The position numbers and the translations under genes are program-made. Under the pieces are notes generated by a model. It worked only from the letters and a program-made list of their open reading frames with translations. It made no database searches and was not told the origin of the DNA. Positions 30,435-34,183 of a stretch of DNA of 61,861 nt are shown here, one piece after another. Each line of letters starts with the position of its first letter. Within the stretch, counting starts at the first letter, position 1. Source of the DNA: Candidatus Falkowbacteria bacterium RIFOXYA2_FULL_47_19 (lineage in GTDB: Bacteria > Patescibacteriota > Patescibacteriia > Patescibacteriales > UBA12075); NCBI GenBank assembly GCA_001780275.1, contig MFGB01000008.1, forward strand, positions 1 to 61,861. The letters run 5' to 3'.

Positions 30435-30469
30435 AGTCAAATGTCAAAAGTTAAAGGTTAAATGTCAAA
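30435..30469. repeat. Heptamer array (nGTYAAA)5 overlapping the pyrBI stop
   Basis: agtcaaa tgtcaaa agttaaa ggttaaa tgtcaaa. Confidence 0.7.
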
Positions 30470-31928
30470 TCACCTCCTTCTGCGTGAAATCCTTTTCGCA
30501 GTAATAGCAGCGCAAGCCTTTTTCTATATGGATAAAGCGGGCGGCGGCTTCAGGGTCGTGGTTGGTTATGCAGTTCTGGTTCGGACAGACGCCGATGCCG
30601 GTAGTTTTGTCCGGGGTTTTAACTTTTATTTTCCTGAATGTTTCGTCTTTGATGACATTAAAGGTGGTATCCGGCGCGAACGAGGCGATCGTGCCCATCA
30701 GGGAATCGGGAATAAAGATGTTTTCCAGGACCAGCACGTCTTTAAGCTTGCATTTTTTTGAAGACACATCCTCGATCGTGTGTTTTACTCCTTTGACCAA
30801 TACGTCTTTGGCGGACAGGAATTCGCGGATCTTAAGGCCGAGGCCGTGCGGGATATGATCAATGACCGTGCCGTTCGTGATCGGCAGGAAATAGCGGCTG
30901 GCGGTCTTTTTCTTTTTTCTTTTTTCCAGATATTCTTTTAGGGGCAGTTCTTTGATTATTTTGAATTCCGCGTCTTTTTTCGTTATAGGCAGGATTTTGG
31001 CTTTTCGGTTCCGGTAGCCTTCCGCGAGCAGGAACATACGGGTCGGGATTCCGTGCCAGGCCTCAAGATCGATGATCAGGCGGACATCTTTTCTTATTCT
31101 GGGCTCAAATTCCTGGACGTAAGGCATCGGGTGCATGATCAGGACGTTTTTCTTGAAAGAGTCCAGGATATCGGCCGTGATCCGGAATTTTTCCCGGGCG
31201 CGGTTAAGCGCGACCGGGTCGCCCGTAAATCTTTCTTCCTGGAGCCTGGAGCCGTAAATAAGATCGCAGTCCCCGAGCCTGTCCATGGAATTCACTTCTT
31301 TGACGTTAGAAAAAAGATTTTTGTATTGGGTCTGCAGGGCTGTTTCCGGCGCGGAAAAAAGCGTCAAGGATATATTTTTTTGGTGGGCCAGCGCGCAAAG
31401 AAGGGAGTGGACGGTGCGCCCGTATTTAAGGTCGCCGAAAAAACCGATCTTGAAATTGTCAAGCCGGCCGAGCTTTTCCGAGATTGTCAAAAGGTCGAGA
31501 AAAGTCTGCGAGGGATGCTGGTTCGTGCCGTCGCCGCCGTTTTGTACGGAAACTTCGTAGCCTTCGCCGTCCAGTATTTCTGCGGCAAATCTTTGCGCCC
31601 CCTCTATTTTCGTGCGCATAACCAAGACGTCCGCCCCCTGGGCCGCGAACATGCGCACCGTATTAGCGATACTTTCTTTTTTAGTGAGGGAAGTCGCTTC
31701 CGCGCCCAAGATTTCCGCGTTTGCCCATCCCAGAAGCCGTGAAGCTTCAAGGTAAGAGCCGCGCGTCCGGGTGCTTGGTTCAAAAAAAGCGAAGATCGCT
31801 TTTTTCTCCGGCTGGTAGCGAATCGGTTTTCTCTTCCGGGCCGCCGCTATCACCGCGCGACAGCCGGGAATGATCTCGTTATAGATTTCTTTTTTGCTGA
31901 AATCATTGATACTTATGCAATGTTTCAT
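30465..31928 (-). CDS. pyrBI: Aspartate carbamoyltransferase, catalytic chain fused to regulatory chain (PyrB-PyrI)
   Basis: FFEPSTRT, NGGDGTNQHPSQTFLD, GDLKYGRTVHSL, RLQEER, HPMP; C-terminal ITNGTVIDHI and CPNQNC...CYYCE Zn site. Confidence 0.92.
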   Translation of the reverse strand: MKHCISINDFSKKEIYNEIIPGCRAVIAAARKRKPIRYQPEKKAIFAFFEPSTRTRGSYLEASRLLGWANAEILGAEATSLTKKESIANTVRMFAAQGADVLVMRTKIEGAQRFAAEILDGEGYEVSVQNGGDGTNQHPSQTFLDLLTISEKLGRLDNFKIGFFGDLKYGRTVHSLLCALAHQKNISLTLFSAPETALQTQYKNLFSNVKEVNSMDRLGDCDLIYGSRLQEERFTGDPVALNRAREKFRITADILDSFKKNVLIMHPMPYVQEFEPRIRKDVRLIIDLEAWHGIPTRMFLLAEGYRNRKAKILPITKKDAEFKIIKELPLKEYLEKRKKKKTASRYFLPITNGTVIDHIPHGLGLKIREFLSAKDVLVKGVKHTIEDVSSKKCKLKDVLVLENIFIPDSLMGTIASFAPDTTFNVIKDETFRKIKVKTPDKTTGIGVCPNQNCITNHDPEAAARFIHIEKGLRCYYCEKDFTQKEVI

Positions 31929-31943
31929 AAGCTCCGTTTATGT

Positions 31944-32867
31944 TTATTTTGTTATAAGAGTTCCGGGATGGGCGGGGGAGTCGGTGATAACCGCTTTTTG
32001 TCCGCCGCTTTTTATAAAATTGATCGCCGCTTTGATCTTCGGGCCCATGCTCCCGGCCGGAAATTCGCCGGCGTCGTAGTGGGCCCCAAGGTCTTTTACG
32101 CTTATCTTATCTATAGCCCTTTGGCTGGGTTTATTGAAATTAAGATAGACTTTTTCCACATCGGTAATTATATAAAGAGCCTCGGCTTTGACGGTTTTAG
32201 CTAAAAGAGCTGAAGCCAGGTCTTTATCTATGACCGCTTCCACACCGATCGTTTTTTTGCCTTTTCTTAAGACCGGAATACCGCCGCCCCCGGCGGCGAT
32301 CACGATATAGCCGGAGTCGGAGAGTTTTTTAACGACATCTTTATTAAAAATATCCACGGGCAGGGGAGAGGCCACGACCCGCCGCCAGCCGCGACCGCGG
32401 GGATCTTCCTTGAATTTCCAGCCGTTTTTAGCCGTGAAAACCTTGGCCTCCTCTTCCGGGTAGTAGGGTCCGATCGGTTTGGTGGGATTCCTGAAGGCCG
32501 GATCGTCTAAGCTCACCAGAACCTGCGAAACTATGGTTACAACCCGATGTTTGAGATCATTGGCCGCGAGGACGTTAGTCATCTGCCTTTCAATCATATA
32601 ACCGATCCCGCCCTGGGAATCGGCCACGCAGATATCAAGGGGCATGGGCGGAATTTTGAATTCATTATAGCCGGCATGGTTGCGCAAAAGAATATTGCCG
32701 ACCTGCGGGCCGTTGCCGTGCGTAATTATCAGGTTATGCGTTTTCAGGAGTTTTGTAAGCCCCAGACAGGTGCGGTAAGCGTTTTTTTCCTGCTGTTCTA
32801 TATTACCTTCTTCGTCGTGCGTGAGCAGGGCGTTACCCCCCAAGGCGACAACGGCTGTTTTTTTCAT
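31944..32867 (-). CDS. arcC: Carbamate kinase
   Basis: VALGGNAL, THGNGPQVG, PTKPIGP, GWRRVVASP, GGGGIPV, VEAVIDKD, GSMGPK. Confidence 0.95.
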   Translation of the reverse strand: MKKTAVVALGGNALLTHDEEGNIEQQEKNAYRTCLGLTKLLKTHNLIITHGNGPQVGNILLRNHAGYNEFKIPPMPLDICVADSQGGIGYMIERQMTNVLAANDLKHRVVTIVSQVLVSLDDPAFRNPTKPIGPYYPEEEAKVFTAKNGWKFKEDPRGRGWRRVVASPLPVDIFNKDVVKKLSDSGYIVIAAGGGGIPVLRKGKKTIGVEAVIDKDLASALLAKTVKAEALYIITDVEKVYLNFNKPSQRAIDKISVKDLGAHYDAGEFPAGSMGPKIKAAINFIKSGGQKAVITDSPAHPGTLITK

Positions 32868-34183
32868 AATAGCTTTTTATCGTTTAGTACGCTTCGGACG
32901 TCTAGATCGCCTCTCTCGGCTAGATTGTAGGAGGCGCGGGCGAAAGGTTTGTTGATCTTGATTATGCGCGAAAGGTCTATCGGCGTGCCGATCAATACCG
33001 AATCGCAGTCAGTTTTATTGATAGTGGTCTCAAGGTCCCTTATCTGATCGGCTCCGTACCCCATAGCCGGCAGGATACTGCCGATATTGGGATATTTTTT
33101 GAAAGTTTCCGTGATCAAACCGACCGTATACGGCCTCGGATCGACTATGGTCGAGGCTCCTAAATTATTCGCTATGACCGTGCCGGCGCCGTATTTCATT
33201 TCTCCGTGCGTTAAGGTCGGACCGTCTTCGACCACTAAAACGCGTTTTCCTTTTATTAACTCCGGGTTATCGACCGTAACGGGCGAATCGGCTTCGATAA
33301 CAACCGCTTTAGGATTGACCGTTTTTATGTTACTTTTTACGATTTCCACGTTTAAGGGATGAGCCGAATCCATTTTATTGATCACGGCCACATCAGCCAT
33401 CCGGAGCGCCGTATTGCCGGGATAATACTTAAGTTCGTGTCCAGGGCGGTGCGGATCGACCACGACGAAGGTCAGATCGGATCGATAGAAAGACATGTCA
33501 TTATTGCCGCCGTCCCAAAGGATGATGTCTGCTTCTTTTTCGGCTTCCCGAAGGATCGCTTCATAGTCGACGCCGGCGTAAATAACGCCTCCGGAGACGA
33601 TATGCGGTTCATACTCTTCGATTTCCTCGATCGTGCAGTCATGCTTCTTAAGATCGGAGAGATCGGCGAATCTTTGGACTTTTTGTTTGACCAGGTCTCC
33701 GTAAGGCATGGGGTGGCGCACGGAAACGACCTTTTTGCCGGCTGCGCGCAGGGTATCGGCGATTTTCCGCGATGTTTGCGATTTGCCGCAGCCGGTGCGG
33801 ACCGCCAGCACGGATATCACGGGTTTCGAGCTTTTTAGCTGGGTCTCCTCGCCGCCCATTAGCCGGAAAGACGCTCCGGCGGCATTGACTATGGAAGCCT
33901 TGGTCATGACGTATTCGAAAGTCACGTCCGAATAAGAAAAAACGACTTCATTAACCTTGAACTCGTTTATTAATTCGACTAATTTCTCCTCTTCGAAGAT
34001 TTTTATGCCTTTGGGGTAAAGCTTACCGGCTAATTCCGGCGGATAGATCCGGCCGTCGATATTCGGGATCTGGTTGGCCGTAAAAGCGACAACGTTATAT
34101 TCCTCCTTGTCGCGGAAGCAAACGTTAAAATTATGGAAATCGCGCCCCGCGGCTCCCATGATAAGCACATTTTTTTTTGACAT
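32864..34183 (-). CDS. Cyclic 2,3-diphosphoglycerate synthase-like P-loop ligase (arginine synthetase ArcE-type)
   Basis: MGAAGRDFHNFN, RTGCGKSQT, RHPMPYG, EEYEPH, DGGNND, EDGPTLTHG, PAMGY; 4-bp overlap with arcC. Confidence 0.8.
   Translation of the reverse strand: MSKKNVLIMGAAGRDFHNFNVCFRDKEEYNVVAFTANQIPNIDGRIYPPELAGKLYPKGIKIFEEEKLVELINEFKVNEVVFSYSDVTFEYVMTKASIVNAAGASFRLMGGEETQLKSSKPVISVLAVRTGCGKSQTSRKIADTLRAAGKKVVSVRHPMPYGDLVKQKVQRFADLSDLKKHDCTIEEIEEYEPHIVSGGVIYAGVDYEAILREAEKEADIILWDGGNNDMSFYRSDLTFVVVDPHRPGHELKYYPGNTALRMADVAVINKMDSAHPLNVEIVKSNIKTVNPKAVVIEADSPVTVDNPELIKGKRVLVVEDGPTLTHGEMKYGAGTVIANNLGASTIVDPRPYTVGLITETFKKYPNIGSILPAMGYGADQIRDLETTINKTDCDSVLIGTPIDLSRIIKINKPFARASYNLAERGDLDVRSVLNDKKLL

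Follow-up and report, generated by a model that had tools for sequence, protein, structure and literature searches.

A candidate arginine synthetase–carbamate kinase cassette ahead of a resident PyrB-PyrI aspartate transcarbamylase in a Candidatus Falkowbacteria genome

Here we analysed a 61,861-nt stretch of DNA (hereafter the window; contig MFGB01000008.1 of assembly GCA_001780275.1) from Candidatus Falkowbacteria bacterium RIFOXYA2_FULL_47_19, an ultra-small, mesophilic bacterium belonging to the Candidate Phyla Radiation (CPR) whose genome (G000 where a label is needed) comprises 1.71 Mb in 25 contigs and is 96% complete. The window encodes an ArcE-family ligase, a carbamate kinase (CK) and an aspartate transcarbamylase (ATCase) of the PyrB-PyrI fusion type (PyrBI) in direct succession. 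We consider it reasonably probable that arcE and arcC form an arginine synthetase pathway cassette functionally coupled to the resident PyrBI, with an ornithine transcarbamylase (OTCase)-like gene acting in trans, and by analogy the arginine chemistry is very probably like that of the Thermococcus pathway. The genes, their order, families, phylogeny and co-occurrence were observed directly. An earlier note on this DNA had described three tightly linked genes, and this was confirmed, as all three open reading frames (ORFs) lie on the minus strand, with arcE and arcC overlapping by 4 bp and 15 nt separating arcC from pyrBI:

32864..34183, minus strand: P-loop protein of the ArcE family with 439 aa, a predicted arginine synthetase / ATP-forming arginine deiminase, 76-79% identical to matches that mostly bear Ignavibacteria names where named, retaining 185/187 family-conserved columns
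31944..32867, minus strand: carbamate kinase ArcC, 307 aa, over the TIGR00746 cut-off, its start overlapping the arcE stop (ATGA)
30465..31928, minus strand: aspartate transcarbamylase PyrB-PyrI fusion, 487 aa, recognised by Pfam domains, motifs and the synteny of relatives

The ligase matches no Pfam family and, judged by its relatives, appears to be an ordinary ArcE-family protein that shows no sign of altered specificity. Among 187 columns with at least 95% conservation across 81 relatives it retains 185, a median member likewise lacking 2, and the ligase nests within a clade of relatives from arcE-arcC-argF operons; both observations support the ArcE affinity that the earlier note had proposed for this P-loop ligase. 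Its best 120 matches, leaving out itself and three closer ones, are 75-79% identical and come, where an organism is named, mostly from Ignavibacteria and from a few Bacteroidota, under the labels 'GTPase' or 'cDPG synthase', while the protein-cluster names obtained in an Atlas search are solely 'putative GTPase'. Genes within 5 kb were counted for the best 80 of 565 metagenome matches, many of these loci being short, and comprised CK in 44 and OTCase in 29, with ATCase as the sole transcarbamylase in none; the identical stop/start overlap was present in 8/8 loci chosen for a CK starting at the ligase end. The co-occurrence expected of ArcE was also seen, namely an adjacent CK, an OTCase-like gene in the genome (contig C20) and no arginine deiminase found (PF02274). 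Cyclic 2,3-diphosphoglycerate (cDPG) synthetase, CpgS, was rejected as an identity, as the match to the solved structure is remote and partial (PDB 9sxb; residues 53-322 only, E 1.1e-5, versus 1e-142 for an ArcE-type protein), and the name 'cDPGS' that databases give to close relatives appears to be a transferred annotation. Methanothermus fervidus and Methanopyrus kandleri both make cDPG. For neither of them is arcE listed in Table S1 of PMC11032458, as far as the available text goes, and the same table lists arcE in another member of Salinirubellus, the genus whose plasmid protein adjoining arcC is the one 52.5% identical to the ligase (E 1e-142).

The second gene had been named carbamate kinase in the earlier note, and its product indeed passes TIGR00746 (378 vs 358 bits). 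The named matches of CK, at 61-67% identity, point to the same group as those of the ligase, the best named ones being mostly from Ignavibacteria (65-67%), and in the CK tree the window protein nests among CKs of arcE operons. Inside this Ignavibacteria-like clade it groups with the CK of a second genome of the order, G018, at 93/89 (unstarred node). The arcE-arcC cassette was likely acquired horizontally.

The third gene product carries PF02729, PF00185, PF01948 and PF02748, each over its cut-off, together with the motifs FFEPSTRT, HPSQ, GDLKYGRTVHS, RLQEER and HPMP, the last at the HxLP position. Its residues R171, R228, Q230 and K83 correspond to R167, R229, Q231 and K84 of the Escherichia coli enzyme, which are named for aspartate binding in PMC4581275, and the ATCase motif set given there (FxExSTRT, HPxQ, RxQxER, R167, K84) is present. 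It scores somewhat under the ATCase cut-offs (TIGR00670, 226 vs 237 bits; PRK00856, 208 vs 263 bits) and reaches at most 62 bits against OTCase models, the DxxxSMG loop and K53 being absent. ATCase is the best family by far, and the protein is best read as a divergent member of it, with a catalytic part closest to archaeal PyrB structures. Domains, motifs and families agree with the description in the earlier note of a PyrB-PyrI fusion with aspartate-type motifs rather than SMG/HCLP. Two very divergent PyrBI copies with 24-27% identity sit on a long branch (G307, L062:6564-8258; G081, L068:7224-8822), and the aligned one, from G081, has an altered aspartate loop.

The earlier note went on to propose that ATCase fills the slot of OTCase, which is not supported. 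No OTCase or pyrC-F was found in the window by tblastn/phmmer and family searches, as had been noted, and a genome search for argF/arcB found an OTCase-like gene on contig C20 (C20:6540-7505). The encoded protein has OTCases as its best PDB matches (E 3e-59), keeps K53, N167, D231 and M236 of the residue set in PMC4581275, and carries FEKTSTRT, GIENN and DTWMNME; most of its named relatives are OTCase-annotated proteins of Patescibacteria. The protein probably acts as an OTCase, and ornithine specificity is predicted. On the same contig (G000:C20, L209:5278-8968) lies an L-lysine 6-transaminase, over its cut-off, followed by a 768-aa gene that by eye resembles aldehyde:ferredoxin oxidoreductase, a pair that is a possible outlet for ornithine.

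Support for this OTCase subfamily as a partner of ArcE comes from three genomes of another Patescibacteria family, in which the ArcE frame runs into an OTCase that is 46% identical to the C20 protein:

L233:4721-7090 (G437), L234:5916-8252 (G338) and L236 (G415): ArcE-OTCase fusions, 778-789 aa, the ArcE part being frameshifted in G415

The fused OTCase halves score over the OTCase cut-off (288-300 bits) and group with the C20 type at a bootstrap of 98, sharing the signature GI[EA]NN, DTWxNME. In two of the three genomes the fusion precedes pyr genes. G338 has the order arcC, arcE::argF, a 1.6-kb gap, canonical pyrB::MGS, pyrF, pyrC-like, pyrE-like, pyrD-like and pyrK-like, a near-complete pyr cluster, and G437 has arcE::argF, pyrB::MGS, pyrF and pyrE-like and lacks CK within the 14 kb retrieved; the '-like' pyr labels were assigned from the Pfam amidohydrolase family or by eye. 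The MGS-like domain fused to pyrB is of the type found at the end of CarB. G338 shows coupling of ArcE-OTCase to pyrimidine genes in its gene order, and this fusion is arguably more interesting than the locus in the window. Four of the 80 metagenome loci (L149, L155, L161, L165), ordered arcE-argF-arcC-pyrB, were considered as a further precedent and left uncounted, as their PyrB proteins pass TIGR00670 but lack equivalents of K84 and Q231.

The history of the locus was traced in a survey of 316 genomes of the order. Of 51 PF02729 matches in 45 genomes, 18 are PyrB-PyrI fusions, 20 unfused PyrB (16 scanned, 15 of them over the cut-off; 3 recognised from their motifs; a single truncated one), 5 OTCases, 7 divergent proteins in which HPxQ is absent and 1 a weak match; the reading of the matches of about 310 aa as OTCases was rejected by motifs and family scans, which placed them among the unfused PyrB and the divergent proteins. 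CK is present in 5/316 genomes, comprising 5/5 OTCase genomes, 4/38 ATCase genomes and 0/311 without OTCase, and ArcE in 3/316, all 3 of which also carry OTCase. Sixteen fusion loci were fetched, with miaA close downstream in all 16, gatB upstream in 14 and varied genes in the interval before pyrBI; pyrBI has held the gatB-pyrBI-miaA slot for longer than the cassette, and arcE-arcC entered ahead of it. At L026-L029, L032, L033, L044 and L047, an unfused PyrB of another type stands next to miaA and/or gatB, which is elsewhere the slot of PyrBI and suggests replacement in place. The seven transcarbamylase-like proteins without HPxQ, which also lack HxLP, come from seven genomes (L045:82-1017, L046:961-1890, L048:961-1884, L211-L214), and the three that were scanned hit no NCBIfam family at 1e-55.

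In the model that we favour, substrates, direction and co-transcription are predicted. ArcE would convert arginine, ADP and Pi to citrulline, NH3 and ATP, as inferred from Thermococcus kodakarensis, the C20 enzyme would turn citrulline and Pi into ornithine and carbamoyl phosphate (CP), and CP would pass either to CK, giving a second ATP, or to PyrBI, giving carbamoyl-aspartate. CarB was not found in the genome by family search (CarA was not searched for), so the ArcE/OTCase route is the only CP source seen, and a single transcript would then encode the enzyme of entry together with the two enzymes that consume CP. As the pyrimidine branch stops after PyrBI in the present assembly, flux here would go mostly to ATP. 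T. kodakarensis, which has no CP synthetase, becomes auxotrophic for pyrimidines when arcE or arcB is deleted and not when arcC is, and the available text of PMC13260591 reports that ArcE and OTCase supply its CP for pyrimidines. The model corresponds to one of the options in the earlier note, arginine catabolism via a distant OTCase feeding pyrimidine synthesis, which is the best reading, with the amendment that the route ends here at carbamoyl-aspartate.

A complete de novo pathway to uridine monophosphate was not seen in this genome, as CarB, pyrC and pyrD were not found, and contig C16 (L004:1351-2697) carries a divergent pyrF-like gene (50 vs 193 bits) followed by a frameshifted pyrE; these results answer the carAB and pyrCDEF check of the earlier note, save for CarA. 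The gap between folD and recQ, home of pyrD in another genome of the order (G003), measures 138 bp in G000. Two amidohydrolases were rejected as PyrC, being HutI and a methylthioadenosine/S-adenosylhomocysteine-deaminase-like protein, a PF00764 match was rejected as ArgG, being MnmA, and no uracil phosphoribosyltransferase was found in the genome. In the sister genome, G001, the C16-type pyrE is cleanly deleted, and a pyrD-pyrC-pyrF-pyrE cluster (L073:8335-11905, G001:C25) lies on an island-like stretch without a match in G000, so that the pyrimidine branch is complete there. Across 20 genomes with PyrBI that were compared, CarB was over the cut-off in 0/20 (with 4 weak ATP-grasp matches, of which the one scanned was a D-Ala-D-Ala-ligase-like protein) and HypF likewise in 0/20, and arginine deiminase was found in 0/20. 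Because pyrC was seen in 11 of these 20 genomes (2 over the cut-off) and pyrD in 13, with pyrE in 9, we regard PyrBI in the lineage as mostly a biosynthetic ATCase, operating where CP synthetase was not found. Most of the 18 PyrBI genomes of the survey (e.g. G039, L067; G303, L071; G059, L072) have ATCase, many of them with pyrC/pyrD, and no CarB, CK, OTCase, ArcE or deiminase, and hence no CP source, was found in them. The HutI mentioned above, identified by family scan, belongs to a histidine-utilisation cluster on contig C18 (L009:3221-9477), unusual for CPR bacteria, with histidase-, formiminotransferase- and urocanase-like genes recognised by eye, and together with the lysine 6-transaminase/aldehyde-oxidoreductase-like pair it suggests a wider amino-acid catabolism.

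Several observations weigh against the coupled pathway. The published rule for ArcE, a family delimited through sequence similarity, demands BLASTP E<1e-100 to TK2200 and a length >380 aa (PMC11032458, legend of Fig. S10); the ligase has 439 aa, and its likeness was judged via relatives rather than against TK2200 directly; of 150 representatives, the 7 whose names were checked included none from named Thermococcales. The C20 protein deviates from strict DxxxSMG (DTWMNME; S to N, G to E) and scores slightly below the OTCase cut-off (TIGR00658, 277 vs 281 bits). No pyrC or pyrD was found in the 96%-complete assembly, either by family search or when every long ORF from 21 pyrC/pyrD loci in related genomes served as a tblastn query; pyrE is frameshifted, and contigs from 4 runs in 2 studies, with 2 of these runs perhaps being the source of this DNA, show no indel at that place, and the site of the G001 pyr island, by an rpsI-like gene (recognised by eye), is contiguous and empty in G000. 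No APC-type amino-acid permease was found in the genome. The arcE-arcC-pyrBI triplet is confined to G000 and G001, that is, 2/316 genomes and one genus, G003 has arcE-arcC away from pyrBI and separately acquired, and G018 has CK-pyrBI and OTCase with neither ArcE nor deiminase found. The CK grouping of G018 would fit one acquisition after which this genome lost arcE. The four genomes of the family are closely related, and the counts thus overstate independence. Beyond the order, ArcE occurred in 5/400 Patescibacteria genomes sampled at phylum level and 12/400 at class level, and 14/17 of these other loci lacked a transcarbamylase and 15/17 a CK in the fetched stretch (one only 2.4 kb), so ArcE in CPR bacteria is usually unclustered. 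The earlier note had said that an OTCase elsewhere and a non-conserved adjacency would count against its proposal, and this is largely what we found: the ligase-arcC-pyrBI order is not conserved.

These observations are also accommodated by an explanation that leaves the arginine chemistry unchanged and has the ATP-forming cassette sitting in an insertion-prone gap, with PyrBI as the leftover of a patchy, decaying pyrimidine pathway. The unrelated genes in the gatB-pyrBI interval of many relatives favour it, as do the 15/18 PyrBI genomes without a CK adjoining pyrBI, the separate arcE-arcC of G003, and the broken pyrE with pyrC and pyrD not found. Nevertheless, we think it unlikely, given the 15-nt gap and the terminator-like hairpin 3' of pyrBI, the CK-pyrBI adjacency shared with G018, whose CK groups with the one in the window as described above, and the independent linkage of ArcE-OTCase to pyr genes in G338 and G437. 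Moreover, dN/dS against G001 is 0.080 for pyrBI, 0.042 for arcE, 0.094 for arcC and 0.080 for gatB, and arcE, arcC and pyrBI are each under purifying selection.

Such selection would also suit a catabolic ATCase, in which PyrBI runs in reverse and turns scavenged N-carbamoyl-aspartate and Pi into aspartate and CP, from which the adjacent CK makes ATP beside the arginine route. In each of G000 and G018, CK adjoins pyrBI and pyrC/pyrD were not found, catabolic transcarbamylase genes lie mostly near CK (PMC6022934), and PMC4581275, in its available text, lists the catabolic ATCase as an unproven possibility. That same source states that the forward reaction is favoured; in addition, CK was not found in 34/38 ATCase genomes of the order, PyrBI accompanies pyrC in 11/20 and pyrD in 13/20 genomes, the regulatory PyrI domain is retained, and neither a source nor an importer was found for carbamoyl-aspartate, which together make this improbable. 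A literature search that covered few subscription papers returned no proven catabolic ATCase and no ArcE in Patescibacteria. We would likewise give little credence to the joint claim that Patescibacteria have repeatedly relied on arginine synthetase and its partners instead of CP synthetase, with a cassette joined to pyrBI here and an ArcE-OTCase fusion leading pyr genes in another family, and that PyrBI of G000 and G018 is a catabolic ATCase turning scavenged carbamoyl-aspartate into ATP.

Very improbable, in our view, is an anabolic CK that makes CP from carbamate and ATP for PyrBI and so replaces CP synthetase, another option of the earlier note. It draws on CarB not being found, on the CK-pyrBI pair in G018, where ArcE and deiminase were not found, and on the anabolic CK with channelling proposed for Pyrococcus (PMC6022934). 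Yet CK tracks OTCase and not ATCase (5/5 OTCase genomes vs 0/311 others), the window CK nests among arcE-operon CKs, neither G000 nor G018 has the downstream pathway, and deletion of arcC in T. kodakarensis had little effect, CK being no substitute for ArcE/ArcB as a CP supplier (PMC13260591). The remaining option of the earlier note, in which the ligase would turn guanidinosuccinate into carbamoyl-aspartate, PyrBI would release CP and CK would make ATP, is suggested by gene order only and is hardly credible, as the ligase sits among arcE-arcC-argF relatives with 2/187 conserved columns differing, the genome has an OTCase-like gene, D-arginine, agmatine, guanidine and two dipeptides were not accepted by TK2200 in a reported set that did not include guanidinosuccinate (available text of PMC11032458), and no microbial guanidinosuccinate pathway came up among the papers listed by a literature search.

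The surroundings of the cassette comprise the following features:

30362..30391, minus strand: terminator-like hairpin with 13 pairs and a T-rich tail, 3' of pyrBI; consensus match only
34218..34610, minus strand: 130-aa ORF without a Pfam family between gatB and arcE, an interval that holds different genes in different relatives
34713..36218, minus strand: gatB, conserved upstream anchor, upstream of pyrBI in 14/16 loci of relatives
27820..28794, plus strand: miaA, conserved convergent downstream anchor, near pyrBI in 16/16 loci of relatives

Terminator-like hairpins numbered 17 in the region vs 10 in shuffled sequence, and GC content gives no distinction between the cassette and its flanks. 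AT-rich short repeats precede the 130-aa ORF (about 34610-34712), and in G001 a similar AT-rich run replaces the 15-nt gap between arcC and pyrBI (L011:7880-8000). Between miaA and pyrBI (29481-30334) lie two alike small hydrophobic ORFs of 144 and 160 aa without a Pfam family, a pair that is also present in G001. Upstream, at 36346-41864, a thymidylate cluster comprises a dTMP kinase-like gene, a dTMP kinase-dUTPase fusion (37422-38732), two P-loop kinases, and ThyX-like and dCMP-deaminase-like (ComEB) genes.

Overall, the ArcE assignment and the arginine route via a distant OTCase have stood from the earlier interpretation, and ATCase as a stand-in for OTCase and the guanidinosuccinate route have fallen. 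Few routes to ATP or nucleotides are generally credited to CPR bacteria; the ArcE route, if true, would give two ATP per arginine and CP without ATP cost. Literature searches for these enzymes in Patescibacteria or Falkowbacteria listed nothing relevant. The one curated ArcE protein comes from a hyperthermophilic archaeon (PMC13763154), and the proteins described here are mesophilic and suit tests in E. coli. In addition, the ArcE-OTCase fusion ahead of pyr genes offers a ready-made case for testing whether CP can be supplied without CarAB, and the CK-pyrBI pair without pyrC/pyrD a direct test case for the catabolic ATCase, unproven according to PMC4581275.

Among known systems, the solved cDPG synthetase (PDB 9sxb) is only remotely alike, its match to residues 53-322 being far weaker than those of ArcE-type proteins. 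The PyrB-PyrI fusions of PRK13376, the Thermotoga/Treponema type, similarly unite catalytic and regulatory chains in one polypeptide, whereas PyrBI scores 154 bits against a cut-off of 800 and is nearest to archaeal PyrB in its catalytic part. Saccharibacteria TM7x offers a parallel of acquired arginine catabolism that gives a CPR bacterium ATP, there through an arginine deiminase system yielding one ATP in host-associated cells (PMC8764695), and here through ArcE, with two predicted ATP and a link to ATCase, in an organism present in groundwater and soil metagenomes and in no RNA data set listed. With T. kodakarensis (ArcE TK2200, ArcB TK0871, ArcC TK2158; available text of PMC11032458 and PMC13260591) the present genome shares the ArcE-family protein, CK and an OTCase-like protein, with deiminase and CP synthetase not found and CP able to feed both ATP and ATCase; it differs in being that of a mesophilic CPR bacterium, in having arcE-arcC directly before a PyrB-PyrI fusion, and in its atypical, PRK14804-like OTCase on another contig, with HypF, pyrC and pyrD not found. 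The Ignavibacteria-like arcE-arcC-argF operons (L109-L113, L121, L135, L143) have the same order and stop/start overlap, with 72-79% identity in ArcE and about 60% in CK, but carry in third position a canonical DxxxSMG OTCase gene, which is absent here, the resident pyrBI following. The pathway itself is known, and its layout here is a variant, with a single gene run encoding the enzyme of entry plus two that consume CP, and the OTCase in trans.

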